Shown here one piece after another: positions 2,273-56,178 of a stretch of DNA of 64,000 bases. The notes under the pieces are model-generated. The model ran no database searches. It worked only from the letters and a program-made list of their open reading frames with translations, and was not told the origin of the DNA. The translations under genes and the position numbers were made by a program. The DNA is from an uncultured Planctomycetia bacterium (GTDB taxonomy: Bacteria > Omnitrophota > Gorgyraeia > Duberdicusellales > Duberdicusellaceae). The DNA lies in contig CAZWJT010000003.1 of the NCBI GenBank assembly GCA_964634935.1, positions 52,323-116,322 on the forward strand. Direction: 5' to 3'. Positions within the stretch are counted from its first letter, which is position 1. Each line of letters begins with the position of its first letter.

Positions 2273-2275
2273 TCG

Positions 2276-31139: not shown

Positions 31140-31143
31140 CTCC

Positions 31144-34758: not shown

Positions 34759-34765
34759 AGTATCT

Positions 34766-35941: not shown

Positions 35942-35988
35942 CCAAGTTGGCACGAGGTTTTACGGGTAAGGAGATTTTCTAATACAAT

Positions 35989-36720
35989 ATGCAAATTCCC
36001 AAAAATATTCTTGCGATTATCCCGGCGCGCAAAGGCTCAAGAGGTTTGAAGGATAAAAATCTGTCTTTACTGGATAAGCATCCTTTGGTTGTCCATACCT
36101 TTGCTGCAGCAAGATCCTCAAAGTTGCTTACCAGGATGATTATGTCAACCGACGATTGTCGCATCGCTCAATTGGCATTACGACATGGGATAGAAGTTCC
36201 GTTTCTTCGCCCCAAATATCTGGCGTCTGACCGGGCAAAAAGCACAGATGTGGCGTTGCACGCGCTTATGCATGTGCAAAAGCATGAAGATTATTCTCCG
36301 GATCTGATTGTTTTGCTTCAGCCAACAGCACCGCTACGCACAGGAGCGCACATTGATGACGCAATACGGAAATTATGCGCACGCCGGGGCGATTCACTAG
36401 TCAGTCTTTGCAGATTATCCGAGCCGCACCCCTATAAGCTGAAACGCTTGAAAAACGGATTTGTTGTTCCATTCTTGACAGGAACCGACAGCACCGTCCC
36501 TCGCCAGCAGTTGCCAGAGGTGTACCGGCTGAATGGCGCAATTTATATTGTTACCCGCGAGGTTTTGCTCAAAGAGAAAAGTTTTTTTGGCACAAGAGTA
36601 ATCCCGTATTTTATGGAGGAAGATTTTTCCGTGAACATTGATTCCGGTTTTGATTTGCTTCTTGCTGAGGCAATATTAAAAAAAAGAAAGCAACGCCATG
36701 GAAAAAGCGTTTCGGTGTGA
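35989..36720 (+). CDS. nonulosonate cytidylyltransferase, second NeuA-like copy
   Basis: ILAIIPARKGSRGLKDKNL motif. Confidence 0.8.
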   Translation: MQIPKNILAIIPARKGSRGLKDKNLSLLDKHPLVVHTFAAARSSKLLTRMIMSTDDCRIAQLALRHGIEVPFLRPKYLASDRAKSTDVALHALMHVQKHEDYSPDLIVLLQPTAPLRTGAHIDDAIRKLCARRGDSLVSLCRLSEPHPYKLKRLKNGFVVPFLTGTDSTVPRQQLPEVYRLNGAIYIVTREVLLKEKSFFGTRVIPYFMEEDFSVNIDSGFDLLLAEAILKKRKQRHGKSVSV

Positions 36721-37531
36721 AATTATAGCCGAAGTTGCCTCGAATCATTCAGGAAACTTAGCTATTGCCAAAAAATTTATACAGGTTTCTGCGCGCTTGG
36801 GAGTTGATTATGTCAAATTTCAATCTTCTCGCTATGAAGATTTAGTGCGCAAGAACGATCCGCAGGCAGAATGGATAAAACGGACGTCACTCTCCGAGGA
36901 AGATCATCTATTTTTAATAGATGTTTGCAGGCGATCGGGGGTCTCTTTTTTGACAACCTGTTTTAGCTTAAGCAGAGTTTCTTTTCTCGGTTCGCTTGGC
37001 TTACGCGCTATTAAGGTAGCAAGCCCAGATCTTTTAAGCTTTGCGATGATTGAAAAATTGGCGCAATTCTTTCCCCGAATTTTTATTTCAACCGGCATGC
37101 ATTCAATCAAAGAAATCAAAGCCGCTATTAAATTTTTGTTAACCAATAAAATACCCGCAGTGCTTTTGTATACAGTATCCTTGTACCCTACCCCTTTGGA
37201 AAAATGTTTTATGCGTAAATTTCTTTGGCTGAAAGACCACTATCCTTTGGTCGGTTACAGCAACCATACAGCAACCATAACCCCGGCAAAATTTGCCATG
37301 GACCATGGCGCAAGCGTCATTGAAGCGCATATGAAACTCAGTGATTCTGGTCCTGGCAGGGTGACCCCGTGGGATATCAGTCCATCCGATTTTTCCGAGA
37401 TTATCAAGTACCGCGCCATGTTGCGTGAGTTTCTCGGCAATGCGCAGTGGCTTGCCAGTGAAAATTATCTTTTTCCGGAAGAGAGAAAAGCGAAACGGCG
37501 TTTTGTCGGGCGCTGGGGGGATAATGTCTAA
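36698..37531 (+). CDS. NeuB-family synthase lacking the C-terminal SAF domain
   Basis: IIAEVASNHSGN, KFQ, TIM-barrel body only (277 aa vs 358 aa for the upstream NeuB). Confidence 0.6.
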   Translation: MEKAFRCEIIAEVASNHSGNLAIAKKFIQVSARLGVDYVKFQSSRYEDLVRKNDPQAEWIKRTSLSEEDHLFLIDVCRRSGVSFLTTCFSLSRVSFLGSLGLRAIKVASPDLLSFAMIEKLAQFFPRIFISTGMHSIKEIKAAIKFLLTNKIPAVLLYTVSLYPTPLEKCFMRKFLWLKDHYPLVGYSNHTATITPAKFAMDHGASVIEAHMKLSDSGPGRVTPWDISPSDFSEIIKYRAMLREFLGNAQWLASENYLFPEERKAKRRFVGRWGDNV

Positions 37532-37533: not shown

Positions 37534-38373
37534 ATGGATTTATCAGATATCCAGAAAGAGCAACAGTTCAGCAGTTTTTCTTTCAGCGCATATCCTGCAA
37601 AAACACGATATCATGGAGATACCGCTGCACACTACAATATCCGCCGGGAGAAAAATCCTAAGTGGCGGAGAGAATTCGCAGCGCTTCGCAATATTCTTTC
37701 CGCCTGTCGTTCCGATTCGTCAATTTTGGACATCCCCGTGGGCACGGGACGTTTCATTCCGCTCTACAACAGCGGTTTTAGGAAAGTTTTCGGTTTTGAT
37801 GTATCTTTGGATATGGTGCGGCAGGCAATCGCTGGATACCCTGCTGGGAAAGTTTATTTCGGGGTAGGGGAAGCAGAAAAGATACCTTTCTGTGATAAAT
37901 CAATAGATTATCTTGTTTCCATCCGTTTCCTAAACTGGATTTCCACGGAGCATCTTCGGCACATCCTGCAGGAATATACACGGGTGGCTCGTCTAGGAAT
38001 TATTGTAAGCATCCGCGTTGAAGAAGCGTCAAAGGGAATAAGTGTTCTTTTCTGGTCTATCTACAATCTGATCCCCGCGGTTGTTCATGGAATTTTTCAG
38101 TTTCGGAAAACATTGTCGCGCTTCAAGAGTAGATTGCGAAAAATGAAATCTGCAGAGGTTTCTTGGGCATCTCAAGAAAACACGAAAATATCAAATGGAT
38201 ACGCGGTCCACAAGGGAGCAGATATTTTAGATATATTTTCTGCCTTGCAGCTTACTATCGAACGAGTTATCGACGTAGATGTTCCTTTTTCATATCGCAC
38301 GCGGACAATAAAACCATATCGATTTTATTTTTTGAAGTTTTCTGATGGTAAAAATTGTTCTTCATTAACATGA
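37534..38373 (+). CDS. class I SAM-dependent methyltransferase
   Basis: ILDIPVGTGRF motif I. Confidence 0.6.
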   Translation: MDLSDIQKEQQFSSFSFSAYPAKTRYHGDTAAHYNIRREKNPKWRREFAALRNILSACRSDSSILDIPVGTGRFIPLYNSGFRKVFGFDVSLDMVRQAIAGYPAGKVYFGVGEAEKIPFCDKSIDYLVSIRFLNWISTEHLRHILQEYTRVARLGIIVSIRVEEASKGISVLFWSIYNLIPAVVHGIFQFRKTLSRFKSRLRKMKSAEVSWASQENTKISNGYAVHKGADILDIFSALQLTIERVIDVDVPFSYRTRTIKPYRFYFLKFSDGKNCSSLT

Positions 38374-41544: not shown

Positions 41545-42132
41545 ATGGAAAGATTTCTGAATCATTCATACGATACAAAAAAAAGGCTATTTTCTTATTG
41601 GCATCAGATGGATGAAATAGAAAAAACGCAGCCTGAGAGTGTTCTTGAGATAGGCATAGGCAGTGGTTTTTTAAAGAAGTACTTGGATGGAAAATACAAG
41701 TATCATACGCTTGATATCGCGCAAGATCTCCATCCTGATTGTGTCGGATCAGTTCTTCATTTGCCGTTTCTTAGCCAGAGTTTTTCGGTTGTTCTGTGCT
41801 GTGAAGTGTTGGAGCACTTGTCCTTTGATCTTTTTCCTTCTTCGTTGCAAGAATTACGCCGGGTAGCGCGGAAAAGAATTATACTCTCTCTGCCTGACCG
41901 GCGTCCATTCCTTTCTCTACAGCTGCCACTTTTGGGAAAACAGGCCATTTACTCCCCATTCTTTACTCCTCCGCACACTGTTTCCATCCGTGAGCATCAG
42001 TGGGAAGTCAATACGCGGAAGGTTTCACTACAAGATATCATCGTATGTTTCGAGCAGGCGCGCCTGAAGCTGATAAGAACCTACCAGGTATTTGAAAATT
42101 ACAAACATAGGTTTTTTATATTGGAAACGTAG
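41545..42132 (+). CDS. class I SAM-dependent methyltransferase
   Basis: VLEIGIGSGFL motif I, Methyltransf_11-like length. Confidence 0.65.
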   Translation: MERFLNHSYDTKKRLFSYWHQMDEIEKTQPESVLEIGIGSGFLKKYLDGKYKYHTLDIAQDLHPDCVGSVLHLPFLSQSFSVVLCCEVLEHLSFDLFPSSLQELRRVARKRIILSLPDRRPFLSLQLPLLGKQAIYSPFFTPPHTVSIREHQWEVNTRKVSLQDIIVCFEQARLKLIRTYQVFENYKHRFFILET

Positions 42133-42148: not shown

Positions 42149-43492
42149 ATGAATATCATTTTTTTTATCAGAAGGTTTAACGACATCGATCATATTGTTC
42201 CCATTGTCTATCGGATTGCGAAGGATCGTTCCGCAATTCCGTATGTATTTTCGCTCAATCCCGCACTCGATATCGAGCATGATTTTCGGCTACGGTTTTT
42301 ACAAGATCAATATCAGGTCAAGGTTGATTTTGTCTACAATGCGTATCGGGATAGTTTTTGCTATGCGCTTGGGTCATTTTTAGTATCGAGCCGGTTTGTC
42401 CGGATGCGCATGGCGGATTGGTCAATGTGTCTGAAAAAAATATTTATAAAGCAATGTTTAGATTCTTATTTTAAAAATTTATTTTTCATATTTCTCTTCC
42501 CTTGCTGGTTGTTATACAACAAGACGCTGTATCCTTTTTTCTGCAGGCAGGGGCTTACAAGAATCTTTTCTGGAAACTGGGGCATAAAAATTCTCAAGAA
42601 GTACCAGCCCAAAGTTCTTGTTTTTGATCGGGTTAAGAAAGAACAGTATGTGACACAGTCTCTTGTCGATGCCGCAAAAAAATTAAAAATTCCTCTGATT
42701 GCCGTTCCGCATGGCTTAAATCTTATTGTCAACCTCCTGCAGCGGGATAGCGATGTCCAGAGAAACGAACCGACTGACTATGGCGAGAAATCAGGATTTT
42801 TTGATTTTCTTATTGTTCAATTTGCTGCTTACAAGAATTTGCTTGTTCAGGCAGGGATTGATCCGCAAAGAATAAAAGTATTGGGTAGTACGCGTTTTTG
42901 CCGCGAGTGGAGGAAAGTATATCATAGCATCGCCCCGGCATATGAAAATGTTCTTCCTTCTTCTCCGGGAAAACTGAAGGTCGTATTTATGGAGTACCCG
43001 TACATGTATCGTATCCATAAAGACGTGGTTGCTGAGACCATGCTTTCTGTATCAAAGCTGCCATTTATCCATCTCGTCATAAAACCACACACCCGCTCAA
43101 ATAAACTCTATGCGCAGGAATTTGAGTCAGGCGGTAAGATAACGATTGCTTACGATATTCCTTCCGTTACGCTGTGCACATGGGCTGATGTGGTGGTTGG
43201 TACTACCTCAAGTATTTTGTTAGAGCCCTTGTTAAATAATAAAGTTTTGTTGTATCCAAAGTTTTTTCATGAGAATATAATGTTGTTTGAAAAGATGAGA
43301 GCTTGTTGGGTTGTTCAGACGGCTCAGGAACTGCTCCAGGCACTCAAGGAGCTCTCTCGGGATTCGCGCCAACGCCCCTACTTACAAACAGACGTTGATT
43401 CGTTCATTACCGAGGTTGTGTACGGCGGGGTACAAAAGCGGGATGTTTTGGGTGAGTATGTGGATTTTATCCGGGCTGTCGCAGAACCGTAG
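42149..43492 (+). CDS. hypothetical protein, possible GT-B-like transferase
   Basis: About 448 aa; C-terminal region (VVVGTTSSILLEPLLNNKVLLY) resembles GT-B C-domains; start uncertain (42092 or 42149). Confidence 0.3.
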   Translation: MNIIFFIRRFNDIDHIVPIVYRIAKDRSAIPYVFSLNPALDIEHDFRLRFLQDQYQVKVDFVYNAYRDSFCYALGSFLVSSRFVRMRMADWSMCLKKIFIKQCLDSYFKNLFFIFLFPCWLLYNKTLYPFFCRQGLTRIFSGNWGIKILKKYQPKVLVFDRVKKEQYVTQSLVDAAKKLKIPLIAVPHGLNLIVNLLQRDSDVQRNEPTDYGEKSGFFDFLIVQFAAYKNLLVQAGIDPQRIKVLGSTRFCREWRKVYHSIAPAYENVLPSSPGKLKVVFMEYPYMYRIHKDVVAETMLSVSKLPFIHLVIKPHTRSNKLYAQEFESGGKITIAYDIPSVTLCTWADVVVGTTSSILLEPLLNNKVLLYPKFFHENIMLFEKMRACWVVQTAQELLQALKELSRDSRQRPYLQTDVDSFITEVVYGGVQKRDVLGEYVDFIRAVAEP

Positions 43493-43503: not shown

Positions 43504-44292
43504 ATGATGATGAAAGTAGTAATTCTTTGCGGAGGATTGGGGACTCGCCTTCGAGAAGAAACAGAATTCCGTCCTAAGCCGATGATAGAGATAGGCGGGA
43601 AACCGATTCTTTGGCATATTATGCGCATCTATAGCCATTTTGGCTTTAAGGAGTTTATCCTCTGCTTGGGGTATAAAGGCGAGATGATCAAAGAGTACTT
43701 TTATAACTATGAGATTTTGAGCAACGATTTTACGATTGAACTTGGGAAAAGAGAAAGCATCGAGATGCATGCTGCGTCACGCGAGGTGGGATGGAAGATT
43801 ACCTTTGCCGATACAGGAGACGCAGCATTGAAGGGGGCTCGGTTAAAGCGCATTGAAAAATATATCACCGGTGATACGTTTATGGTTACCTATGGAGATG
43901 GTCTTGCGGATGTCGATATCCCTGGGCTTCTTAAATTTCACAAACGGCATAAGAAGATTGCTACAGTGACCGGCGTAAATGCGGCTGCCCGTTTTGGAGA
44001 ACTTAAAATTCAGAACGGCCGTGTTGCGAAATTCTTTGAGAAACGCACTGCGCATAAAGAATTTATCAATGGTGGTTTTTTTGTATTCGATAAAAGAATA
44101 TTCCGGTATCTTGAAGATAAAGATTCTTGCGATCTCGAGTACGGCATTCTTGAACAACTTGCCGCTCGGCAGGAACTAGTCGCTTATTTACACCGTGGTT
44201 TCTGGGCATGTATGGATACCTTGCGAGACGTGGAATATCTGAATCAGTTATGGCATAAGAATCGAGCTGACTGGAAAGTATGGGATGGGTAA
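43504..44292 (+). CDS. rfbF: glucose-1-phosphate cytidylyltransferase
   Basis: KVVILCGGLGTRLREETEFRPKPMIEIGGKPILWHIM classic RfbF/DdhA N-terminus. Confidence 0.9.
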   Translation: MMMKVVILCGGLGTRLREETEFRPKPMIEIGGKPILWHIMRIYSHFGFKEFILCLGYKGEMIKEYFYNYEILSNDFTIELGKRESIEMHAASREVGWKITFADTGDAALKGARLKRIEKYITGDTFMVTYGDGLADVDIPGLLKFHKRHKKIATVTGVNAAARFGELKIQNGRVAKFFEKRTAHKEFINGGFFVFDKRIFRYLEDKDSCDLEYGILEQLAARQELVAYLHRGFWACMDTLRDVEYLNQLWHKNRADWKVWDG

Positions 44293-45368
44293 TGGAGCAT
44301 TTAGCGGCTTTTTATCGGGGCAGGCGCGTTCTCATTACTGGGCATACTGGTTTTAAGGGGGCTTGGCTTTCATTCTTGCTAAAGCATTTGAAAGCCGAAG
44401 TCATCGGGTATGCGCTTCCTCCCCCAACAAATCCAAATTTATTCTCCATTCTTCATTTGGAAGGTAAGATGCATTCAGTTCTCGGAGACGTCTGCGACTG
44501 TAAAAATCTTTTCAAGATGATCAGGCGATATAAGCCGGAATTAATCTTTCATATGGCGGCGCAGTCATTAGTCAAACGGTCATATCTTGCGCCACGCGCA
44601 ACTTTCGCGACAAATATTATGGGCACTGTCCATGTCTGTGAAGCGGTGCGTATGTATCAGTTTATTCGCGCCCTTGTGGTAGTGACAAGCGATAAATGTT
44701 ATGAGCAATCTTCCGGTAAAAAAATATTTTCTGAAGAGGATTCTATGGGTGGATTTGATCCCTATAGTTCAAGCAAAGGTTGTGCCGAACTTGTTGTACG
44801 AGCTTATGAGCGTTCTTATTTTTCAAAGGTTTCCACAGTTTCTGGAGCAATAGCTTCAGCGCGTGCCGGAAATGTTATAGGCGGCGGAGACTGGGCCGTC
44901 GATCGGATTATTCCAGATTGCGTCCGAGCGTTTCTCAAGAACAAACCCATTGTCGTTCGGTGTCCTGATTCTGTGCGTCCCTGGCAGCATGTGTTCGATC
45001 CTCTTTATGGATATCTTCTTCTTGGGAAAAACCTTCTTGAATCTGGAAAGAAGTTTAGCGGGGGATGGAATTTTGGGCCCTGTGAAGGCCGGAAAACCGT
45101 CAAGTGGCTTGTTACATATATGATACGCTTGTGGGGTAGAACCAGCGGCTGGATACCAGATAAAACAACACATCCCCATGAAGCGGAATATCTGCGGCTT
45201 AATTGTCAAAAAGCAAACAAAAAATTACGTTGGTTTGCATCGTGGAACATTACCAGAGCCGTGCGAGAGACGATGGCATGGTACAAGGCTTATTATGCCA
45301 AGGTTGATATGTGGGATTTCTCGTTGGGACAGTTGAGCCAATATATCGCAGGAAGGGTGAAGCGATGA
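44292..45368 (+). CDS. rfbG: CDP-glucose 4,6-dehydratase
   Basis: FYRGRRVLITGHTGFKGAWL, YSSSK; TAATG overlap with rfbF. Confidence 0.85.
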   Translation: MEHLAAFYRGRRVLITGHTGFKGAWLSFLLKHLKAEVIGYALPPPTNPNLFSILHLEGKMHSVLGDVCDCKNLFKMIRRYKPELIFHMAAQSLVKRSYLAPRATFATNIMGTVHVCEAVRMYQFIRALVVVTSDKCYEQSSGKKIFSEEDSMGGFDPYSSSKGCAELVVRAYERSYFSKVSTVSGAIASARAGNVIGGGDWAVDRIIPDCVRAFLKNKPIVVRCPDSVRPWQHVFDPLYGYLLLGKNLLESGKKFSGGWNFGPCEGRKTVKWLVTYMIRLWGRTSGWIPDKTTHPHEAEYLRLNCQKANKKLRWFASWNITRAVRETMAWYKAYYAKVDMWDFSLGQLSQYIAGRVKR

Positions 45369-46588
45369 ATTGCAGGTTTTGTGATACTCCATTGAACTTT
45401 CTTTTTATTTCTTTAGGTTTTTCCCCACTCGCCAATGCGTATCTCTCTGAAGAAGATCTCGGGCGCAAAGAATCATTCTATCCGCTGGATGTTTATATCT
45501 GCCACAACTGTTTTCTTGTCCAATTAGCTGAGTTTGAGGATCCGCAAGCGATCTTCCGCACGTACGCCTATTTTTCTTCGTATGCTGATGCCTGGCTTGA
45601 GCATGCAAAGATGTATGTTGATTCGATAGTCCCTTTTTTAGGCTTGCGTCCGTCTTCCTGTGTCGTTGAGATCGCCAGTAACGATGGCTATCTTCTGCAG
45701 TATTTTGTAGAGAAAAACATACCGGTATTAGGAATAGAACCAGCAGAAAATATTGCCAAGGTTGCACAAGAAAAAGGCATACCTACGGAGATTGCTTTTT
45801 TTGGAAGTTCCTATGCTCAAAGGCTTGTTGAACAGGGGAAATCTGCTGATCTTATCGTGGGGAATAATGTTCTTGCTCATGTTCCCAAATTGAATGATTT
45901 TGTTTGCGGCCTTAAGATTCTTCTGAAACCCCGCGGGGTTATTACTATGGAATTTCCTCATCTTCTGAAGCTCATTGAGGGGCTGCAGTTTGATACTATC
46001 TATCACGAGCATTTTTCTTATTTTTCTTTTTCGACAGTGCGTCGTATTTTCGATACCGCAGGACTTAAGATTTTCCGCGTGGAAGAAATTCCCACCCACG
46101 GGGGATCGTTACGTATTTACGCCGCGCATAAGGAGAATCAAGAGCGGTCCATAGAACGATCCGTTGAACTTTTAAACGAAAAAGAACTTTTAAATGGATA
46201 TCATGAAGTTAAGAAATACCTTCTTTTTGCTGAACAGGTAAGGGCATTAAAATACGCTTCGCTGCAATTTTTCATCGAGGCAAAACGGCAAGGGAAGAAA
46301 ATCGTAGGTTATGGGGCTGCTGCCAAGGGCAATACTTTTCTTAATTACTGCGGCATCGGACGAGATTTTCTCGATTATACCGTCGATAAAAATATGTATA
46401 AACAGGGGAAATTTCTTCCGGGAACTCATGTTCCGATTGTAGCTCCGGAAATGTTAAAAAAGACAAAACCAGATTATATTTTTATACTAGCCTGGAATTT
46501 GAAAGAAGAAATTATCAAGCAGCTTGGTTATGTGCGTTCATGGGGCGGTAAATTTGTAACGGCAGTTCCTTCAATGACGGTTCTCTAG
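45365..46588 (+). CDS. TylC3-type NDP-hexose C-methyltransferase family protein
   Basis: N-terminal CRFC...CHNC zinc-ribbon, VVEIASNDGYL SAM motif, C-terminal C-methyltransferase-type domain. Confidence 0.65.
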   Translation: MNCRFCDTPLNFLFISLGFSPLANAYLSEEDLGRKESFYPLDVYICHNCFLVQLAEFEDPQAIFRTYAYFSSYADAWLEHAKMYVDSIVPFLGLRPSSCVVEIASNDGYLLQYFVEKNIPVLGIEPAENIAKVAQEKGIPTEIAFFGSSYAQRLVEQGKSADLIVGNNVLAHVPKLNDFVCGLKILLKPRGVITMEFPHLLKLIEGLQFDTIYHEHFSYFSFSTVRRIFDTAGLKIFRVEEIPTHGGSLRIYAAHKENQERSIERSVELLNEKELLNGYHEVKKYLLFAEQVRALKYASLQFFIEAKRQGKKIVGYGAAAKGNTFLNYCGIGRDFLDYTVDKNMYKQGKFLPGTHVPIVAPEMLKKTKPDYIFILAWNLKEEIIKQLGYVRSWGGKFVTAVPSMTVL

Positions 46589-46589
46589 T

Positions 46590-47126
46590 ATGAAGTTTCT
46601 TCCGTCCACAATCCCCGGCGTGTTCTCGATTGAAAAAGAAGCTTTTCAAGACGAGAGGGGTTTTTTCTTAAGAACGTTCTGTCAGGAAGAATTTCGGAAG
46701 CATCACATTGATTTTACGGTTCGGCAAACGAACCTGTCTTATAATCGGATCAAGGGAACCTTGAGGGGTTTACATTACCAAAGAGAGCCGTTTCAAGAAG
46801 ACAAGCTTGTTGAATGTATCCGTGGTTCTTTTTATGATGTAATTCTTGATTTGCGGAGAGATTCTCCCGCGTACGGTACCTGGGTTGCTTTTTCGCTTAC
46901 CTGCTGTAAGCCAACAATGATTTATGTTCCGCGCGGATGCGCACACGGCTTTCAAACACTCGAAAACGAAACTTTTCTTTTATACCATATGTCCGAGTTT
47001 TATCATTCGCAGCACGCAACCGGTATCCGATGGAATGATCCTTTTTTCCGTATTTCTTGGCCGCTTCCGAATCCTTTGGTATCTGATCGCGACTCGCAAT
47101 ACCCAGATTTTGAAAGATCAACATGA
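46590..47126 (+). CDS. NDP-4-keto-6-deoxyhexose 3,5-epimerase (cupin, RfbC-like)
   Basis: 178 aa cupin with RGLHYQ and HGFQTLE motifs of RmlC family. Confidence 0.8.
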   Translation: MKFLPSTIPGVFSIEKEAFQDERGFFLRTFCQEEFRKHHIDFTVRQTNLSYNRIKGTLRGLHYQREPFQEDKLVECIRGSFYDVILDLRRDSPAYGTWVAFSLTCCKPTMIYVPRGCAHGFQTLENETFLLYHMSEFYHSQHATGIRWNDPFFRISWPLPNPLVSDRDSQYPDFERST

Positions 47127-48043
47127 ATAAAACGGTGTTGGTGAGCGGAGCGAATGGTTTTATCGGCCGGCACACGCTCCCTCTTTTATTGGAGCGGGGA
47201 TATAATGTGCATGCGCTTCTGTATCCTTCCTGTGACAATTCTCTTAAGGTTTTCCCTTGTCAGTACCATGTATGTGATCTTTTCGATTTTGCGGCACAGA
47301 AAAAAATATTTGAGCAAATCCGTCCTGTGTATCTTATACATTTTGCCTGGATTACAACTCCAAAAATTTATTGGACATCGTTCGATAATTTTCGTTGGGT
47401 TCAGGCGAGTCTCGAGCTTTTCCGGAATTTTATAGAATGTGGGGGTAAACGCATTCTCTGCAGCGGCACTTGCGCTGAATATGACTGGGTAAATGAGCGC
47501 TTATCAGAAACCACTTCTTCTCTGGTTCCTCGTACGTTTTATGGAATATGTAAACGCAGCCTTTCCGAGTTACTTTTTGCCGTTAGCCGGCAAACCAAGG
47601 TTAGCAGCGCCTGGGGGAGGATTTTTTTTGTCTATGGTCCGCATGAACATAAAGAACGGCTCGTCCCTTCTGCGATCCACGCGCTCTTAGGCGGGAACAA
47701 TTTTCGCTGTTTTTCTGGAGAACAAAAGCGGGACTTCCTTTTCGTAGAAGACGTCGCCGCTGCTTTTGTTGCTTTATTGGAAAGTCAGGTTGAAGGAGCG
47801 GTGAATATCGCATCGGGTGCCGCAATTCCTATTCGGGAGTTACTGGAGACACTCAGGCGCACGATTGCTACGACGGGAGTTATCGAGTTTTTCCAGGAAT
47901 CAAAGAATAATCAAGAACCACCGGCGTTGGTTGCCGACATAAAACGGTTAGAACAAGAAGTGCATTGGCGTCCGCGATGGACAATTGAAGAGGGATTAAG
48001 AAAAACTGTTCAATGGCACAGAGAGGTTTTTGGTAATCTATGA
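47123..48043 (+). CDS. NAD(P)-dependent NDP-sugar reductase/epimerase
   Basis: VLVSGANGFIGRH, YGICK. Confidence 0.7.
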   Translation: MNKTVLVSGANGFIGRHTLPLLLERGYNVHALLYPSCDNSLKVFPCQYHVCDLFDFAAQKKIFEQIRPVYLIHFAWITTPKIYWTSFDNFRWVQASLELFRNFIECGGKRILCSGTCAEYDWVNERLSETTSSLVPRTFYGICKRSLSELLFAVSRQTKVSSAWGRIFFVYGPHEHKERLVPSAIHALLGGNNFRCFSGEQKRDFLFVEDVAAAFVALLESQVEGAVNIASGAAIPIRELLETLRRTIATTGVIEFFQESKNNQEPPALVADIKRLEQEVHWRPRWTIEEGLRKTVQWHREVFGNL

Positions 48044-49185
48044 AATGTCCTGTTTGTTCTGCGCATACCACCACACGATTCTTGGTAAGATCAAACATTC
48101 CCGTGCACCAGAATCTTCTCTATAGGAGCCTGAAAGCTGCGCAGCAGGCCGTTCGGGGAGATCTGGTTTTAAGAAGATGCCCGCATTGCGATTTTGTTTT
48201 TAACAGTTCGTTTAATCAGTCGTTGCTTTCCTACGGGAGCGATTATGAGAATACACAAATGCACTCAAAATATTTTGCCCGGCATATCCAATCGCTTCTT
48301 AGATATTTTGTGGGAAAAAGGCAAGCTACCCATAAGCGTATCGTAGAGGTAGGGTGCGGGGAAGGATATTTCTTAAGACTACTCTGCACACAGGGTAAAA
48401 ACGTTGGCGTGGGTTTTGATCCAGCCTATCAAGGACCTTTGTCTGTGGCTGATGGCAGGATTATTTTTCATCGTTCCTTCTTTAATCCGCGCTTGCTTCA
48501 GGAAGTCCCAGATGTCATTGTCTGCCGGCATCTCATAGAGCACATTATCTCTCCTCGAAAGTTTTTAGAGGAGCTGAAGACTATTTCCAAGCAATTCTCA
48601 GGTTGGATGTTTTTTGAAACCCCTTCTCTTGAATGGATTCTACAGCACCATGCCTTCTGGGATTTTTTCTATGAACACAGCTCGTATTTTTGTCAAAGGT
48701 CCTTGGAGGTTTTGTTCGCCGAAGCTGGTTTTCGAGTTATGAGTTGTCAAAGCGTTTTTGGGGGCCAGTATTTTTGGATAGAAATAGCGGGGGCACAGGG
48801 CATATCAAACGAAAGTAAACATAAACGCATTCCGAATGCGTGGTTTGCAAGTTACCAAGACAAAGAGAATGAGCTTGTGCGGTATTGGAGAGAGCGTATT
48901 GAAAAAATAAAGAAAAATGGTAGAGTAGCTCTCTGGGGAGCTGCGGCAAAGGGTACGACTTTTGTCAATCTTATCGACCCTGATAGGGTGCTGATTGATT
49001 GTATTGTTGATCTCAACCCTCGCAAGCAAGGGATGTTTATCCCGGGAACCGGCCATCGTATTATTTCATACGCAGAACTACTGAAGCAGGGTGGAATACA
49101 ATCCGTTTTTGTTATGAACAGGAACTATTATCGAGAAATAAAAGATCTCACAAGGCGAAGTAAACTCAAGCTTTTCTGCTTATGA
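48040..49185 (+). CDS. second TylC3-type C-methyltransferase family protein
   Basis: CPVC...CPHC zinc-ribbon, IVEVGCGEGYF SAM motif, C-terminal domain similar to 45365-46588. Confidence 0.6.
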   Translation: MKCPVCSAHTTTRFLVRSNIPVHQNLLYRSLKAAQQAVRGDLVLRRCPHCDFVFNSSFNQSLLSYGSDYENTQMHSKYFARHIQSLLRYFVGKRQATHKRIVEVGCGEGYFLRLLCTQGKNVGVGFDPAYQGPLSVADGRIIFHRSFFNPRLLQEVPDVIVCRHLIEHIISPRKFLEELKTISKQFSGWMFFETPSLEWILQHHAFWDFFYEHSSYFCQRSLEVLFAEAGFRVMSCQSVFGGQYFWIEIAGAQGISNESKHKRIPNAWFASYQDKENELVRYWRERIEKIKKNGRVALWGAAAKGTTFVNLIDPDRVLIDCIVDLNPRKQGMFIPGTGHRIISYAELLKQGGIQSVFVMNRNYYREIKDLTRRSKLKLFCL

Positions 49186-49195
49186 GAGGTATAAG

Positions 49196-49963
49196 ATGAA
49201 ACTGGTAATTGATACAAAAAAGGAAATTTTAGTAAAAGAAGAAAATGGGAAAAGGGCAGTTTTCAACCTTTACTCGCCCAAGGCATTTGAGATACTGAGT
49301 CAGCAGTGGCTTAAGGTTGGATGGGACCAGAAATATTCTTATTCCTATACTTGGTTGAACCGCCCGGTTATCCAATTGCCTGATGATCTACTCCGGATGC
49401 AGGAAGTTTTATGTACGGTGCGGCCAACCGTGGTTATTGAGACCGGCATTGCGCATGGAGGATCCCTTATTTTTTACGCGAGTATCTTAACGCTTCTGGG
49501 TGAGGGCAGAGTCATAGGCATCGATATTGCAATTAAACCACCTAACCGCAAGGCCATAGAAGCTCATAAGCTTTCTTCGAGAATTTCATTAGTAGAAGGA
49601 AGTTCTACCGAAATTTCGGTGCGGAAAGCAGTCGAACAGATGATAAAGAAGAACGACAGAGTGTTGGTGGTTTTAGACTCATGCCATACAAAAAGGCATG
49701 TTGAAGAAGAGCTTAACGCATACTATAAGCTTGTTACAAAAGGTTCCTATCTTGTCGCTACCGACGGCATTATGAAGGATTTATCAGATACTCCCCGGGG
49801 GAAAAAAGAATGGATTTTTGATAATCCTGTTTGCGCAGTAAGAAAATTTTTAAAGCAACATCCTGAATTTCGGCTGGAACGCCCACCCAGGATTTTTAAT
49901 GAAAGTAAGTTGCCCAAAGATATCACTTATTGGCCGAGCGCGTACCTGAAGCGTATTTCATAA
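49196..49963 (+). CDS. CmcI/cephalosporin-hydroxylase-family methyltransferase (sugar O-methyltransferase-like)
   Basis: WLNRPVIQLPDDLLRMQE...VVIETGIAHGGSL typical of CmcI family. Confidence 0.65.
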   Translation: MKLVIDTKKEILVKEENGKRAVFNLYSPKAFEILSQQWLKVGWDQKYSYSYTWLNRPVIQLPDDLLRMQEVLCTVRPTVVIETGIAHGGSLIFYASILTLLGEGRVIGIDIAIKPPNRKAIEAHKLSSRISLVEGSSTEISVRKAVEQMIKKNDRVLVVLDSCHTKRHVEEELNAYYKLVTKGSYLVATDGIMKDLSDTPRGKKEWIFDNPVCAVRKFLKQHPEFRLERPPRIFNESKLPKDITYWPSAYLKRIS

Positions 49964-49974: not shown

Positions 49975-51006
49975 ATGCCGACAGTGACTCTTACAAATCA
50001 AGCCCTCAGTTTTCTCACCCCGTATTTGGAGTATTTTGAAAGTGTTTCCTGCCCTCTTTGCAAAAAAGACGACGCAACTGTCATTGGGAGAAATAGTCGA
50101 GGCGGCATTCAGATTAATACCGTAATCTGTAATACCTGCACGCTTATTTATCTCAACCCGCGCCTTTCGCAAAAGAAATATAAAGAGTTTTACGCAACGG
50201 GGGATTATTTAAAATTTTTACAAGTTGTGAAAGGCAGAAAGTCAGAAGAGAGTGATTCAAAAGAAGAAAGCGATCATAAATTCTTGCGGCGTAAAGAAGC
50301 CGGCTGTTTTATCGCTAAGAAATATTTTAAAGATTTTTTGTCTACCCGGGATATTTATTTTGATATTGGATGTGGTTTTGGGGGCATACTCGCAGGCGTT
50401 CGGGATGTTTGTCAATGTGAGATTGCCGGGAATGAGCCGGCGCTTTTTTGTGCCGAGTATGCTCAAAAAAGATTAAACGCGCCTATTGTACAGTGTGCCG
50501 TTGAAGATTTAGAGCAAAAAGAAGGGGAAGCTTATTGGCATAAATGTAAACTCGTTTCGATCTTGAGTACATTGCGGCATGTGGACAATCCTTGTTTGTG
50601 TCTTATGGTTGCAAATAAGTTATTGATGGAAGGCGGGTATCTTTATATTGAGGTCGCCGATCTCATACGGAAAATGGCATTAACAGGAAAAACTCTCGAG
50701 AGTTTTTCCACTATTGATCACCCGTACAATTATCATAACTATAACTTGCAATACTTACTGAGTATGTGTGGGTTTAGCGTAGTCCGGTTTACGTACAAAA
50801 GCAAAACATCCAGCATGATGGAGGTGTTGGCCCGAAAGGAAAAAGGGATAAGCACCAGCATAGGCTGTGGCCCAGCGCAAATCATTGCACAAATTATTTC
50901 TTTAGATACCAGTATACGGACAGCAAGGAGAAGTAATTGGTTTTCGGTTGTGAAATTCTTCCATTGGGCAAAAAAAATGAAGAGTAGATTGTGTCGTGCA
51001 TGGTAA
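49975..51006 (+). CDS. class I SAM-dependent methyltransferase with N-terminal Cys-rich region
   Basis: CPLC...CNTC then YFDIGCGFGG motif I. Confidence 0.55.
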   Translation: MPTVTLTNQALSFLTPYLEYFESVSCPLCKKDDATVIGRNSRGGIQINTVICNTCTLIYLNPRLSQKKYKEFYATGDYLKFLQVVKGRKSEESDSKEESDHKFLRRKEAGCFIAKKYFKDFLSTRDIYFDIGCGFGGILAGVRDVCQCEIAGNEPALFCAEYAQKRLNAPIVQCAVEDLEQKEGEAYWHKCKLVSILSTLRHVDNPCLCLMVANKLLMEGGYLYIEVADLIRKMALTGKTLESFSTIDHPYNYHNYNLQYLLSMCGFSVVRFTYKSKTSSMMEVLARKEKGISTSIGCGPAQIIAQIISLDTSIRTARRSNWFSVVKFFHWAKKMKSRLCRAW

Positions 51007-51031: not shown

Positions 51032-51913
51032 ATGGAAAAAGTAAGCATTGGATTACCTGTTTATAATGGGCAGGCATACTTAAAATACGCTCTCGAAGCT
51101 CTTTTGCGTCAAGATTATTCCAATATTGAGCTGATCATTTCCGATAATGCCTCTACAGATGATACTCCAGCAATCTGTCATGAATATAGCATGCGTCATA
51201 GCAGATTGCGATACGAAAGAAATGCTACAACTACGAATGTTTTTCTTAATTTCCGCAAAGTCTTCGAGCTTTCTACGGGTGAATACTTTATGTGGGCAAG
51301 TTCAGATGACCTATGGGCGAATAACTATGTTTCAGCGCTTGTTGAACTTTTGCAGGCATATTCTCATGCGGTTTTAGCTTTTTCTCCGGTACAGAGGATT
51401 GACCAATTTGGCAGACAATTGGGGAAACCTACGCAAGCCAGGAGTGATCATCCGAGGACGAACGCCGTTGGAAGGGTGATAAAGAATCTCCAGCGTAACT
51501 CCTGCAGTATTTTTTATGGTTTATTCCGGCGGCAGATACTTGAGAAAACTTCAGTCTTTCCGGAGCTAGGAATTCCGCCAGACCTTGCTTTATTAGCAGA
51601 GATTTCTTGTTACGGTTCGTTCGCTGGAACGAGCAAGACGATTTTTTATCGCCGGAAACACACTCAACAGGTAAATCGGCTGAGAGATGACGTTGAGCAT
51701 AACCAAGCTATCGTATTAAAATGGTGTTTGGATAGGAGAACCCAGCAATGGATCAATTCTTTGTATCTTTCAGGACCAGAAAGGAAGAAAGTCGAGAGGG
51801 TTCTTGCCAAGGAGATTTTCCTCCATAATAAAGGAGGGTCTTTTGTGCGAAAAGCAGTACGCGCGTTGAAACGAAAAAAGCAATTTTTCATGAAACCTTC
51901 ATTTATTTCTTAA
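51032..51913 (+). CDS. family 2 glycosyltransferase
   Basis: VSIGLPVYNGQAYL, ISDNASTD. Confidence 0.8.
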   Translation: MEKVSIGLPVYNGQAYLKYALEALLRQDYSNIELIISDNASTDDTPAICHEYSMRHSRLRYERNATTTNVFLNFRKVFELSTGEYFMWASSDDLWANNYVSALVELLQAYSHAVLAFSPVQRIDQFGRQLGKPTQARSDHPRTNAVGRVIKNLQRNSCSIFYGLFRRQILEKTSVFPELGIPPDLALLAEISCYGSFAGTSKTIFYRRKHTQQVNRLRDDVEHNQAIVLKWCLDRRTQQWINSLYLSGPERKKVERVLAKEIFLHNKGGSFVRKAVRALKRKKQFFMKPSFIS

Positions 51914-52014
51914 GCGAACCCGATTTTCAGCCTAAAAAAACACTATCTCCAAGTAAACAGCTAGCGTATAATATATGATACTGAGTAAATGATATTTTTG
52001 AAGGAGTGGAGGAT

Positions 52015-52776
52015 ATGCGACACAATACACTGAAGCAATCGATGTTTCGGCGTCGCTATACGGTCGGCTCTTGGATCACCCAGGCTGAACCCTCGATAGC
52101 GGAAATTATGGTAGACGCTGGATTTGAATGGTTGGTCGTTGATATGGAGCATTCAGCGATTACTTTTGCACAAGCCCAGGATCTCGTACGGGTTATTTCT
52201 CGAGCCGGGAGCATACCTCTTGTGCGGGTAGGTGAGAATAGCCAAAATTTTATCAAGCGAGCAATGGATATAGGAGCATATGGAGTAGTGGTGCCGATGG
52301 TTAATACTGCTTCTGATGCCCAACGTGCAGTCGAATCGGTAAAATATCCTCCGTGGGGGAAGCGAGGGGTTGGGCTTGCTCGGGCTCAAGGTTATGGGTT
52401 AAGTTTTGAAACGTACAAACGATGGGTAAACAAAGAAACCGTTGTTATTGCGCAAATCGAACATATTGAGGCTGTTCGGAATCTGGAAGAAATTTTATCA
52501 ATTCGCGGAATTGACGGAACTATCATCGGACCATATGATCTTTCTGCTTCTCTGGGGGTTCCCGGTGATTTTCAGCACCCAGAATTTACAAAAGCCGTGT
52601 CCCATTATGAGAGTACTTGTAGAACGATGAAAAAACCAGCAGGATTCCATGTAGTCAGACCGGATGTGCTCCAAGTGCGGCTGCGCCGCAAACATGGATA
52701 CTGTTTTATAGCCGTTGGATTAGATACGCTTTATTTAGGAGAAAAATGCCGAGAAATTCTACGAAAGATCCGTTAA
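52015..52776 (+). CDS. HpcH/HpaI-family class II pyruvate (2-keto-3-deoxy acid) aldolase
   Basis: WLVVDMEHS, PLVRV, VVPMVNTASDA motifs; AAGGAG RBS 8 nt before ATG 52015. Confidence 0.75.
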   Translation: MRHNTLKQSMFRRRYTVGSWITQAEPSIAEIMVDAGFEWLVVDMEHSAITFAQAQDLVRVISRAGSIPLVRVGENSQNFIKRAMDIGAYGVVVPMVNTASDAQRAVESVKYPPWGKRGVGLARAQGYGLSFETYKRWVNKETVVIAQIEHIEAVRNLEEILSIRGIDGTIIGPYDLSASLGVPGDFQHPEFTKAVSHYESTCRTMKKPAGFHVVRPDVLQVRLRRKHGYCFIAVGLDTLYLGEKCREILRKIR

Positions 52777-53759
52777 ATAATTATGATGCCATGCGTCCGC
52801 AAGACCTTTATGCTGAAGTGTTGCGTCAGCGGGAAACTGATGGGCAAGCTTTTTTTGCTCTCTACCACGATAAATTTGTGGAGGTTGCGTGTCCCGTATG
52901 CGGGAATAATGGCATATTCTCCTTTGTAAAGTATGGTTTTTTACATCGGACCTGCGGTGAATGTCATACTTTGTTTTGTTCCCCTCGACCCCCGGAAGAC
53001 TTACTCTCTTTATATTATACCCAGTATAAAGCTCCCCAACTCTGGACGGAGCTTGTTATAAAAACAGATGCTCTCCGCAAATCCGTTCAATATCTACCCC
53101 GAGTTGAAGCAATTCTGGCGATTATAAAACAGCAAGGTGTTTCTCAGGGCGGACGGGCATTAGACATAGGAGCGGGGAGCGGGGCTTTTTCCCTTTGTCT
53201 TAAAAATACAAAATTTTTCCACCAGGTTATTGCGCTTGATATTTCCGAACCATGCGTACACGCCTGCCAGTCGCAGGGGTTAGAAGCACAATTGGGAACC
53301 ATTTTTGACATAGCCGACGATTCTTTTGATTTTGTTTGCACAAATGATTTTATTGAGCATTTATTCGATCCGGGTATTTTTTTAGAACAATGCTTCCGGA
53401 TTTTGCGCAAAGGCGGTTATTTATCAATAGCAACCCCGAACGGCGAGGGTTTCGATTTCAAGATTTTGAGAGAAAAAACCAACAATATTACTCCTCCAGA
53501 GCATCTTACCTATTTGAACCCCGTTTCCTTAAGTTTTCTGCTCAAGCGCACAGGTTTTTCTCCGGTTAGTATTCTGACTCCCGGAAAGCTGGATGTTGAG
53601 ATTATACAGAAAGAAAAAGCATCAGGGTATCCTCTCGCGGATAAAAATCAATACATAGATTATCTTTTAGGTCTGGACGAGCAAACTGTATGTAATTTCC
53701 AGAAATTTCTTGTAGAAAACGGGCTTTCAAGTCACATGGTGGCTGTTGCTCATAAATAA
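52746..53759 (+). CDS. class I SAM-dependent methyltransferase with N-terminal zinc-ribbon
   Basis: CPVCGNNG...CGEC and ALDIGAGSGAF motif I. Confidence 0.6.
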   Translation: MPRNSTKDPLNNYDAMRPQDLYAEVLRQRETDGQAFFALYHDKFVEVACPVCGNNGIFSFVKYGFLHRTCGECHTLFCSPRPPEDLLSLYYTQYKAPQLWTELVIKTDALRKSVQYLPRVEAILAIIKQQGVSQGGRALDIGAGSGAFSLCLKNTKFFHQVIALDISEPCVHACQSQGLEAQLGTIFDIADDSFDFVCTNDFIEHLFDPGIFLEQCFRILRKGGYLSIATPNGEGFDFKILREKTNNITPPEHLTYLNPVSLSFLLKRTGFSPVSILTPGKLDVEIIQKEKASGYPLADKNQYIDYLLGLDEQTVCNFQKFLVENGLSSHMVAVAHK

Positions 53760-53768
53760 GGAGAAATC

Positions 53769-54554
53769 ATGAATATTGTCGGTATTATTCCTGCCCGGAT
53801 GGGATCCAGTCGGTTCCCCGGTAAACCTTTAATGCCCATATGCGGGATACCGATGATTGGTCATGTATATTTACGAAGTAAAATGTGTAAGGCGCTCTCT
53901 GCGGTCTATGTTGCTACCTGTGATACCGAAATAGAACAGTATCTTCATTCAATCAATGGAAACGTGATTATGACTTCTTCAGCTCATGAGCGAGCCTCAG
54001 ATAGAACAGCAGAAGCTCTTTTAAAGATTGAGGAAACTCGGAAAGAAAAAATAGACATAGTCGTTATGATTCAAGGCGATGAACCTATGCTTGTGCCTGA
54101 AATGATTGAGCAGGCAGTGAGACCTCTGTATGAAGATCAGTCATGCCATGTCGTTAATCTTATGGCTTGTTTAACCTCAGAAGATGAACAAAAAGACCAG
54201 AATGAAATAAAAGTTGTGGTGGATCTCAAGAATTTCGCTCTCTATTTTTCTCGTAGCCCAATTCCCTATCGGAAAAAAGACGCTCCGCCCACCCCTGTTT
54301 ATAAGCAGGTATGTATTATTCCGTTCCGGAGAAATTTTCTTCTCGAATACAATAATCTTGCAACCACCCCTCTAGAGAAGGCAGAATCGATTGACATGTT
54401 GCGTGTTCTTGAGCATGGTCATAAAGTGAAGATGGTTTTGACTTCCTTTGTGACCTACAGCGTTGATACGCCTGATGATCTTCGGGAGGTTGAAGAAGTG
54501 ATGAAGGGGGATTCTTTGATTTCTTCATATCAAAAGGGCGCGGCAAAAAGATGA
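53769..54554 (+). CDS. KdsB-type 3-deoxy-ulosonate cytidylyltransferase
   Basis: IVGIIPARMGSSRFPGKPL...GIPMIGHV is the KdsB (CMP-Kdo synthetase) N-terminal signature, distinct from the two NeuA-type genes. Confidence 0.8.
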   Translation: MNIVGIIPARMGSSRFPGKPLMPICGIPMIGHVYLRSKMCKALSAVYVATCDTEIEQYLHSINGNVIMTSSAHERASDRTAEALLKIEETRKEKIDIVVMIQGDEPMLVPEMIEQAVRPLYEDQSCHVVNLMACLTSEDEQKDQNEIKVVVDLKNFALYFSRSPIPYRKKDAPPTPVYKQVCIIPFRRNFLLEYNNLATTPLEKAESIDMLRVLEHGHKVKMVLTSFVTYSVDTPDDLREVEEVMKGDSLISSYQKGAAKR

Positions 54555-55471
54555 AGATAGCCATCACAACGACATCATTCGGCGTGCACGATGATGCGCC
54601 GCTTGCGAAGCTGCGCGCCAAGAATTGTGAAGTTGTTTTGAATCCTTACAAGCGCACCATCACCACCCAGGAACTCATCCAGCTGGCCTCTGATGTCGAA
54701 GGTTTGATTGCTGGTACTGAGCCGATTACAGAAGAAGCGCTTGAGCAAATGCGGAATTTGCGGGTCATTTCCCGTTGCGGTGTTGGTGTTGATTCTATCG
54801 ATGTCATCGCGGCTTCAACAAAGGGAATAGCGGTATTGAATACCCCCCAAGCTCCGACCGTTGCCGTAGCTGAATTGACCGTTGGATTTATGATCATGCT
54901 TCTTCGGCGCGTCGCAACGATGAACCAAAACATACGCCAGGGTATTTGGAATAAGATGATGGGGAATCTTCTTTGCCGCAAACGGGTGGGGATAGTGGGT
55001 TTTGGAAACATAGGAAAGAAAGTAGCTACTCTGCTAGGGTCGTTTGGAGTTGAAATAAGATACTACGATCTTTCCAAGAGCCAGGTTAATCCAGGTTGCC
55101 AATTTATGGATTTTGATCCTTTGCTCCAATGGGCGGATATTATTACCATACATGCATCGAGCAAGAATAAAAAAATGATCCTTGGAGCGCGTGAATTTGC
55201 TTTGATGAGGCAAGGAGCATGGCTCGTCAACGTTTCTCGGGGCGGGTTAGTAGATGAAGATGCTCTCTATGCTGCGGTGGCAAACAAGCATCTTGCTGGT
55301 GCAGCGTGCGATGTATTTATGCAAGAACCGTATACGGGGCCTTTGGCTAGGCTGGATAATATTATTCTTACTCCCCATATCGGTTCTTATGCTGTTGAAG
55401 CGAGAATAGCTATGGAAATGCAGGCAGTTGATAATCTCCTTGAAGTATTGGAACACAATAAAAGTAAGTAA
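54551..55471 (+). CDS. D-isomer-specific 2-hydroxyacid dehydrogenase
   Basis: VGIVGFGNIGKKVA NAD motif, catalytic domain layout of PGDH/GDH-like family. Confidence 0.85.
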   Translation: MKIAITTTSFGVHDDAPLAKLRAKNCEVVLNPYKRTITTQELIQLASDVEGLIAGTEPITEEALEQMRNLRVISRCGVGVDSIDVIAASTKGIAVLNTPQAPTVAVAELTVGFMIMLLRRVATMNQNIRQGIWNKMMGNLLCRKRVGIVGFGNIGKKVATLLGSFGVEIRYYDLSKSQVNPGCQFMDFDPLLQWADIITIHASSKNKKMILGAREFALMRQGAWLVNVSRGGLVDEDALYAAVANKHLAGAACDVFMQEPYTGPLARLDNIILTPHIGSYAVEARIAMEMQAVDNLLEVLEHNKSK

Positions 55472-55484
55472 TTTGGTAATTCCC

Positions 55485-56174
55485 ATGACTGTCTATCTGT
55501 CGCATGTGTTAACTCGGCACATTCCTGTGTATGGGGTTCCTAGACAGCGATTGAGCATCAAGAAAACTGAACGGGGTAGTCGCAATAATTTCTGCCAGAC
55601 ACATTGGTTTGGCATGGAAAATCATTGGGGAACTCATGTTGATTGTCCGGCCCATTTTTTCCGTCGGGGACAATGTGTCGCAGATTATCCGTCTGATTTC
55701 TGGTTTTTTCAACATCCTCAAGTACTGCATCTGGATCTTGCTCTTGGCCAGATTCTTCGGCAGCAGGATATTCCGGGCAGGGTAGATATGAGTACGGATT
55801 TGCTACTTCTTTGTTCTGGCTTAAGTCGATTGCGTGGAAGTACAGCGTATAGCCGCAATAATCCTGGATTACATCCCGAGATTGGTTTTTGGTTACGAAA
55901 ACACTATCCCAACTTGCGAGCAATAGGAATTGATTGGATATCGATTTCTTCTTTTCAGCAGCGGGATTTAGGTAAAAAGGCACATCAGGCATTCTTAAAT
56001 CCTAAGGCTCCGGGTCATCCGATTTTGATCGTGGAAGACATGAATCTTTCCGGTGGCTTAAAACAGCTTAAGCAAGCGTTGATCATTCCATTAATCATAG
56101 AGGGCATCGATAGCGCTCCCTGTACGGCAATCGGCGTTTTAAAGCGGAGAAGCGCTTCAATGAAGGAGGGATAG
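55485..56174 (+). CDS. cyclase-family (kynurenine-formamidase-like) protein
   Basis: NHWGTHVDCPAHF HxGTHxD motif; start set to ATG 55485 after upstream stop. Confidence 0.5.
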   Translation: MTVYLSHVLTRHIPVYGVPRQRLSIKKTERGSRNNFCQTHWFGMENHWGTHVDCPAHFFRRGQCVADYPSDFWFFQHPQVLHLDLALGQILRQQDIPGRVDMSTDLLLLCSGLSRLRGSTAYSRNNPGLHPEIGFWLRKHYPNLRAIGIDWISISSFQQRDLGKKAHQAFLNPKAPGHPILIVEDMNLSGGLKQLKQALIIPLIIEGIDSAPCTAIGVLKRRSASMKEG

Positions 56175-56178
56175 TTTC

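Follow-up and report, generated by a model that had tools for sequence, protein, structure and literature searches.

A widespread CDP-hexose gene cassette with a predicted 3-C-methyl branch and a diverged second methyltransferase of the TylC3 fold

Pathways of the deoxythymidine diphosphate (dTDP)-L-mycarose type (TylC3/EryBIII/MtmC, TylK/EryBVII and TylC2/EryBIV) methylate a nucleoside diphosphate (NDP)-4-keto-6-deoxyhexose at C3 with S-adenosylmethionine (SAM), epimerise it at C5 and reduce it at C4. The noviose pathway combines an RmlC homologue (the 3-epimerase NovW), a TylC3-family methyltransferase (NovU) and a 4-ketoreductase (NovS), with a single C-methylation at C5; NovU-type C5 methyltransferases belong to the same family as the C-3 enzymes. 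A comparable set of activities appears to be encoded by seven genes at positions 43504-49963 of a 64,000-nucleotide stretch of DNA (contig CAZWJT010000003.1 of assembly GCA_964634935.1, positions 52,323 to 116,322, forward strand) from an uncultured bacterium placed in the Omnitrophota; this whole stretch is called the window below. In order, the genes encode RfbF, RfbG, a TylC3-type methyltransferase (MT1), an RmlC-type epimerase, a short-chain dehydrogenase/reductase (SDR), a diverged methyltransferase of the TylC3 fold (MT2) and a methyltransferase of the CmcI family. They are most likely one translationally coupled sugar-nucleotide cassette working on cytidine diphosphate (CDP), and their product, as read from the genes, is probably a CDP-6-deoxy-3-C-methyl-L-hexose with one or two O-methyl groups, made for a surface glycan. 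The cassette is common in genomes, and the window copy is one ordinary example.

The cassette departs from the mycarose-type pathways in its use of CDP and in its setting, a surface-glycan locus and not an antibiotic cluster. It holds no genes for a 2,3-dehydratase or a 3-reductase, so C2 would not be deoxygenated, and it has two extra methyltransferases, one of which belongs to a new clade within the TylC3 fold. The noviose pathway differs from it in the dTDP carrier and the single methylation at C5. With the pathways to the CDP-linked 3,6-dideoxyhexoses (abequose, tyvelose, paratose, ascarylose) and to yersiniose the cassette has RfbF/DdhA and RfbG/DdhB in common, but it lacks the E1/E3 (DdhC/DdhD) genes for 3-deoxygenation, and its branch would come from a SAM methyltransferase, whereas that of yersiniose comes from a thiamine diphosphate (ThDP)-dependent two-carbon transfer. 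CDP-vinelose (CDP-6-deoxy-3-C-methyl-2-O-methyl-L-talose), which Okuda and Suzuki are said to have described from Azotobacter vinelandii in the 1960s, resembles the predicted product in its CDP carrier, its 3-C-methyl branch, its 6-deoxy L-series and its O-methylation at the nucleotide stage; no genes for it are known to us. Candidate genes for all six vinelose activities (CDP activation, 4,6-dehydration, C-methyl branch, L-configuration, C4 reduction and O-methylation) are present in the cassette, which speaks for capability only. A TylCIII-type C-3 methyltransferase for a surface sugar, in this case of lipopolysaccharide, is also part of the guanosine diphosphate (GDP)-virenose pathway of Coxiella burnetii, which was predicted in silico with the TylCIII-like CBU_0691 and with GDP-mannose or dTDP as the proposed carrier (PMC3539893); unlike the cassette, it has no MT2 or CmcI partner. 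Monosaccharides with a 3-C-methyl branch are 'quite uncommon' in glycans according to a recent review (PMC9912281). A literature search, which missed most subscription journals, found no paper giving genes or a product for the cassette, and work joining a C-methyltransferase with CDP or a cytidylyltransferase came down to a Sinorhizobium gene table, the Coxiella in-silico study and flagellin glycosylation.

All seven genes lie on the plus strand, and in the reading-frame map neighbours either overlap by 4-13 bases or sit 1-10 bases apart (Table 1); overlapping and abutting reading frames of this kind indicate co-translation. Positions, strand and the gapless run are as placed in the first-pass annotation, which was made from the sequence alone, and the epimerase, the candidate reductase and the CmcI-family gene that it named are all present.

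Table 1. Genes of the cassette and the two genes that follow it, with window coordinates and family matches
Feature	Coordinates	Strand	Family evidence
RfbF, glucose-1-phosphate cytidylyltransferase	43504..44292	+	TIGR02623 341.5 bits (cut-off 300.25); PF00483
RfbG, CDP-glucose 4,6-dehydratase	44280..45368	+	TIGR02622 455.2 bits (cut-off 278.45)
MT1, NDP-hexose C-methyltransferase of the TylC3/MtmC/TcaB9/KijD1 type	45365..46588	+	PF08421, PF13489 and PF08484
RmlC-type 3,5-epimerase	46590..47126	+	PF00908 203 bits; TIGR01221 168.1 bits (cut-off 155.75)
Extended SDR, candidate 4-ketoreductase	47123..48043	+	PF01370 131 bits; GxxGxxG and YxxxK motifs
MT2, diverged TylC3-fold paralogue	48040..49185	+	PF13489 and PF08484 (48.9 bits); N-terminal CxxC...CxxC
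CmcI/RMNT-family methyltransferase	49196..49963	+	PF04989 RMNT_CmcI 231 bits (cut-off 23.2)
MT3, class I methyltransferase	49975..51006	+	PF13489 27.3 bits; N-terminal CxxC...CxxC
GT2 glycosyltransferase	51032..51913	+	PF00535 86.8 bits

The distribution of the cassette was examined by scanning GTDB, one genome per species, with MT2 as the query, and the window proteins were placed on the returned loci by tblastn. In total, 522 MT2 relatives were found among the species genomes; synteny was counted in the best 80 of these 522 loci, 61 of which have at least 5.6 kb of DNA upstream of MT2. In 45 of these 61 loci, all seven genes (RfbF, RfbG, MT1, RmlC, SDR, MT2 and CmcI) share a strand and fit into 8 kb, so that their grouping cannot be put down to chance. 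The gene order is exactly that of the window in 25 loci, and RmlC comes ahead of MT1 in 13. The RmlC gene is retained in 56 of the 61 cassettes that hold MT2, the SDR is conserved in 58, and the CmcI-family gene adjoins MT2 in 56; SDR, MT2 and CmcI are neighbours in nearly all related loci. The best 80 loci are distributed amongst Acidobacteriota, Planctomycetota, Chloroflexota, Cyanobacteria (Microcoleus, Trichodesmium, Okeania), Bacillota, Myxococcota, Gemmatimonadota and Proteobacteria, and include four archaeal lineages (a euryarchaeotal metagenome-assembled genome, Micrarchaeia, Nitrosarchaeum and Methanomicrobiales). Three contigs found through MT2 homologues carry the same gene run, one of them from a Chlamydiota genome. 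The cassette is also present in Azotobacter chroococcum DSM 2286 (L087), and the cytidylyltransferase encoded by the first gene scores above its equivalog cut-off in A. chroococcum, in Microcoleus and on a JGI metagenome contig. Homologues of MT1 at 60-64% identity and of MT2 at 42-48% identity are abundant in metagenomes. A SAM-dependent C-methyltransferase on a CDP scaffold, which had at first been thought unusual, is not so in genomes: besides the seven-gene cassette found across phyla, simpler versions with rfbF and rfbG followed by a TylC3-like gene occur on Bacillus cereus pRML01, on Sinorhizobium meliloti pSymB and in Leisingera.

The carrier is CDP, because RfbF and RfbG both pass the cut-offs of the CDP equivalogs, while the models for thymidylyl-, uridylyl- and guanylyltransferases and for dTDP-glucose dehydratase fail. 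RfbF reaches 56 bits against the rmlA_long model (cut-off 320) and falls far under the cut-offs of GalU and GlmU, and RfbG reaches 114 bits against the dTDP-glucose dehydratase model (cut-off 365). A dTDP carrier was rejected on these scores. The CDP assignment of the two enzymes in the first-pass annotation is thus upheld, and its caveat that the nucleotidyltransferase might prove to be a dTDP-type RmlA did not materialise. In roughly half of the related cassettes (L054, L002 and many others) the dehydratase after rfbF is only about 30% identical to RfbG of the window and scores 205-215 bits against the TIGR02622 cut-off of 278, with a cytidylyltransferase that stays canonical. These diverged proteins point to a putative second dehydratase lineage acting on CDP-glucose.

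MT1 has 407 amino acids; its ATG start at 45365 overlaps the rfbG stop, and with this start the protein agrees exactly with database gene call P0001. The Pfam scores are 77 bits for the zinc ribbon PF08421, with CxxC...CxxC visible, and 207 bits for PF08484. Compared with solved structures, MT1 matches MtmC (4rv9, E 1.4e-75), KijD1 (1.4e-63) and TcaB9 (3.2e-57) over its full length; the alignment with MtmC spans residues 2-403, and the catalytic Tyr-x-Glu-His motif, which reads IYHEH, is conserved. MT1-like proteins cluster with MtmC and TcaB9 in a neighbour-joining tree, which was made without bootstrap and with only these two characterised references (taken from PDB alignments) and shows separation, not function. 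Judged by its sequence, MT1 can be regarded as a genuine TylC3-type enzyme, and it would act at C3 of the CDP-4-keto sugar, in keeping with the SAM methylation of NDP-4-keto-6-deoxyhexoses at C3 by TylCIII-type enzymes (PMC3539893).

The RmlC-type protein matches solved RmlC structures with E 3e-42, and NovW and EvaD-type entries match it too. Its substrate would be the 4-keto sugar already methylated at C3, which it would epimerise at C5 to give the L series. The best solved relatives of the SDR are epimerases and decarboxylases of uridine diphosphate (UDP) sugars, together with the GDP-4-keto-6-deoxymannose reductase 2pk3, and it matches no NCBIfam equivalog; its putative role as the 4-ketoreductase is suggested by the gene context. 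The CmcI-family protein matches the CmcI structure 2bm8 with E 4e-6 and reaches 70 bits, under the cut-off of 400, against NF045824, the equivalog for the mycobacterial rhamnosyl O-methyltransferase. It is presumably an O-methyltransferase.

MT2 is 27% identical to MT1 and 18-20% identical to the solved C-methyltransferases. Pfam does not detect the zinc ribbon PF08421 in it, though the four-cysteine ribbon is present. Its match to MtmC has E 4e-10 as a single sequence and E 7e-24 with a profile of 30 homologues. An AlphaFold (AF2) model of MT2 has pLDDT 91.9 and pTM 0.89, and in a Foldseek comparison with the PDB MtmC, TcaB9 and KijD1 account for the top 18 matches of this model, which extend over about 400 columns with TMq 0.74-0.82; the remaining matches cover the Rossmann core only, with TM no higher than 0.37. 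On this model MT2 is predicted to have the complete three-domain fold of a C-methyltransferase. Residues C3, C6, C47, C50, Y69, H168, E212 and H213 are invariant in the 30 homologues. Y69, H168, E212 and H213 align to Tyr76, His181, Glu224 and His225 of TcaB9, and the position of TcaB9 Tyr222 is taken by an invariant phenylalanine, Phe210; these five TcaB9 residues, known from the Holden laboratory and with mutants named in PDB titles, are those we take to be catalytic. The motifs WGAAAKG and KQG..PGT of the C-terminal domain align with MT1 and MtmC. In the neighbour-joining tree, the MT2-like proteins fall outside the clade of the characterised C-methyltransferases; they form a clade of their own, which also takes in paralogues from Leisingera and S. 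meliloti and which the midpoint root divides from MT1, MtmC and TcaB9. Where two TylC3-type C-methyltransferases had been proposed in the first-pass annotation, that description is therefore supported for MT1 and not for MT2.

The enzymes can be arranged in a pathway of seven steps. From their equivalog-level family matches, RfbF would make CDP-D-glucose and RfbG would convert it into CDP-4-keto-6-deoxy-D-glucose. MT1, with strong orthology to solved C-3' methyltransferases, would then methylate the C3 enolate of the 4-keto sugar with SAM. The RmlC-type enzyme should next bring the sugar into the L series, and it could invert only C5, because C3 would already be quaternary. The SDR may then reduce C4. 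Two further methyl groups would come from MT2 and the CmcI-family enzyme, with hydroxyls as their most probable sites, and the GT2 glycosyltransferase would transfer the finished sugar. MT2 is expected to act on the CDP-sugar itself, since it retains the nucleotide-sugar-binding C-terminal domain. The Glu-His dyad is equally typical of O-methyltransferases, and that of MT2 fits C- or O-methylation; the retention of RmlC argues that C5 keeps its hydrogen, and MT2 is for this reason more likely to methylate oxygen than C5. The C4 stereochemistry and the positions of the methyl groups are not readable from sequence.

A doubly C-methylated sugar, the question from which the analysis started, would require MT1 to act at C3 and MT2 at C5, giving a 3-C-methyl, 5,5-gem-dimethyl hybrid of mycarose and noviose that the CmcI-family enzyme would O-methylate. 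A 4-keto sugar can be enolised only at C3 and C5, MT2 has the full fold of the NDP-sugar C-methyltransferases and is similar to nothing else in the PDB, and its Glu212-His213 dyad, Tyr69 and His168 are just those residues that align with the catalytic ones of TcaB9. The same dyad would serve an O-methyltransferase equally well, however, and MT2 combines its position outside the characterised C-methyltransferases with the phenylalanine in place of Tyr222. A quaternary C3 and a gem-dimethyl C5 would leave an RmlC-type epimerase without stereochemical effect, yet this gene is kept in 56 of the 61 cassettes. Double C-methylation is chemically hard to square with that conservation and is regarded as distinctly unlikely, while the pathway as proposed holds up for a single C-methyl branch.

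The methyl groups beyond the branch might instead be added late. The cassette would then make a 3-C-methyl-6-deoxy-L-hexose nucleotide only, and MT2, the CmcI-family enzyme or both, and MT3 as well, would act on a glycan that is lipid-linked or already finished, or on a different residue in it. The characterised members of PF04989 use non-nucleotide substrates, namely glycolipid rhamnose and cephalosporin according to the family description, and many other methyltransferases are encoded in the same glycan locus. Against late methylation stands the C-terminal domain of MT2, which binds the nucleotide-sugar in TcaB9, KijD1 and MtmC, and the SDR-MT2-CmcI group stays beside the nucleotide-sugar genes across phyla while the remaining genes of the glycan loci vary. 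We hold this course of events to be unlikely, if not strikingly so. A carrier other than CDP, or a chance set of unrelated neighbours in a crowded glycan locus, could be argued from the RmlC-type protein, which lies above the cut-off of the dTDP-4-dehydrorhamnose epimerase equivalog, and from the diverged dehydratases below the TIGR02622 cut-off in many related loci; but the CDP-specific scores of RfbF and RfbG, the failure of the dTDP, UDP and GDP models, the cytidylyltransferase at the head of the cassette in distant phyla and the seven-gene synteny make it very improbable.

Several points nevertheless weigh against a CDP-linked, vinelose-like 3-C-methyl-L-hexose with its further methyl groups on oxygen. 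Selectivity of MT1 for C3 or C5 is not readable from homology alone. The residues that MT2 shares with TcaB9 would also suit enolate chemistry, that is, a C-methyltransferase, and the SDR could be an epimerase instead of a reductase. Vinelose needs two methylations, whereas the three methyltransferases encoded in the cassette are one more than that. The nearest relatives of the A. chroococcum MT2 are 76% identical, those with names being betaproteobacterial, and no A. vinelandii protein is found among its 120 best relatives. A literature search for vinelose gave no match, and the link of the cassette to vinelose is not established.

Variants of the cassette were found on several plasmids. The S. 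meliloti pSymB genes SMb21416-18 are annotated as ddhA, ddhB and an NDP-hexose 3-C-methyltransferase (PMC4053727), and the corresponding locus of strain 1021 (L006) was placed by tblastn. In this locus and on a plasmid of Leisingera caerulea (L007, 8865-14330), the rfbF-rfbG pair precedes three methyltransferase genes, one MT1-like and two MT2-like, which are consecutive in Leisingera, and the two MT2-like paralogues pair between the two organisms in the neighbour-joining tree; homologues of the RmlC and SDR proteins of the window were not found in the examined stretches of either locus. On plasmid pBHZ755 of Brachyspira hyodysenteriae (L089, 4530-12415), a radical SAM protein takes the place of rfbG after rfbF, followed by RmlC-like and MT1-like (52.6% identical) proteins, an aminotransferase, an acetyltransferase, an SDR and a distant MT2-like protein (23%).

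Two genes directly downstream of the cassette differ in their relation to it. MT3 was rejected as a third paralogue because BLASTP shows no similarity between it and MT2 and no solved structure is related to it; it is absent from all 80 related loci examined (E 1e-10, 60% coverage). MT3 is local to the source genome and lies outside the conserved cassette. Homologues of the GT2 protein, at 30-42% identity, come directly after the CmcI-family gene in more than 10 loci (L003, L015, L031, L032, L034, L041, L052, L081 and others). The functional unit thus probably extends to this gene, which is likely to encode the transferase for the sugar of the cassette. Immediately upstream of rfbF, the 447-amino-acid protein encoded at 42149-43492 is matched by neither Pfam nor NCBIfam and lacks a counterpart in the related loci.

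The surface-glycan locus around the cassette extends over about 40 kb. Its first gene, at about 20669, encodes a Bac_transf phosphoglycosyltransferase and lies downstream of the genes for glycine cleavage and lipoate; the locus also encodes a DegT aminotransferase, a Wzz-like GNVR protein, a KpsS/C-like protein, a TagF-like glycerophosphotransferase, several further glycosyltransferases and an ATP-binding cassette (ABC) exporter (57752-59491). Further methyltransferases of the locus are encoded at 37534-38373, 41545-42132, 52746-53759 and 62173-62844. Two nonulosonic-acid modules (25430-33205 and 34562-37531) each contain a NeuC-type 2-epimerase, a NeuB-type synthase and a CMP-transferase (CMP, cytidine monophosphate), and the first additionally contains a CBS-domain nucleotidyltransferase and a 4,6-dehydratase. 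Seven consecutive genes at 52006-57740 encode an HpcH/HpaI aldolase, a methyltransferase, a CTP_transf_3 cytidylyltransferase, a D-2-hydroxyacid dehydrogenase, a cyclase-family protein, an SDR and a HAD phosphatase; their make-up suggests a module for a CMP-activated acidic sugar, distinct from the NeuB-type routes of the same locus. Upstream of the glycine-cleavage genes, a co-directional cluster at 769-12529, whose product is not assigned, contains a ketoacyl synthase, a cyclase, an MFS transporter, an SDR, a B12-binding radical SAM enzyme, an amidohydrolase, a class IV aminotransferase, an IF-2B/MtnA-like isomerase, a class II aldolase-SCP2 fusion and an aldehyde dehydrogenase. The window contains about 60 genes in its 64 kb, all on the plus strand, and its GC skew is positive in nearly all 2-kb windows. 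Proteins identical to those of the window were found only on one NCBI contig and in one Logan assembly, and even the glycine-cleavage proteins are singletons at 90% identity, as expected of a poorly sampled lineage.

The interest of these results lies in a widespread, conserved and apparently unstudied CDP cassette and in a new clade of the C-methyltransferase fold, rather than in the copy carried by the window. The cassette offers a predicted CDP-specific C-methyltransferase, a sister clade of that enzyme family which is useful for glyco-engineering, and a gene candidate for an orphan nucleotide sugar that was reportedly described decades ago. Its relatives in 522 species genomes contrast with the rating of 3-C-methyl branches as 'quite uncommon' in known glycans (PMC9912281). 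If the predicted pathway is true, environmental bacteria and archaea contain an entire group of 6-deoxy sugars, branched and rich in methyl groups, that has been overlooked. It is also conceivable, although rather unlikely, that with MT2 the TylC3 fold has gained a branch of new function, either as a C5 C-methyltransferase leading to a 3,5-di-C-methyl CDP-hexose unknown in nature or as the first O-methyltransferase on a C-methyltransferase scaffold, and that the cassette is the genetic basis, long missing, of CDP-vinelose-type sugars. In that case, branched methyl sugars would be far commoner in the surface glycans of bacteria and archaea than structural chemistry records.

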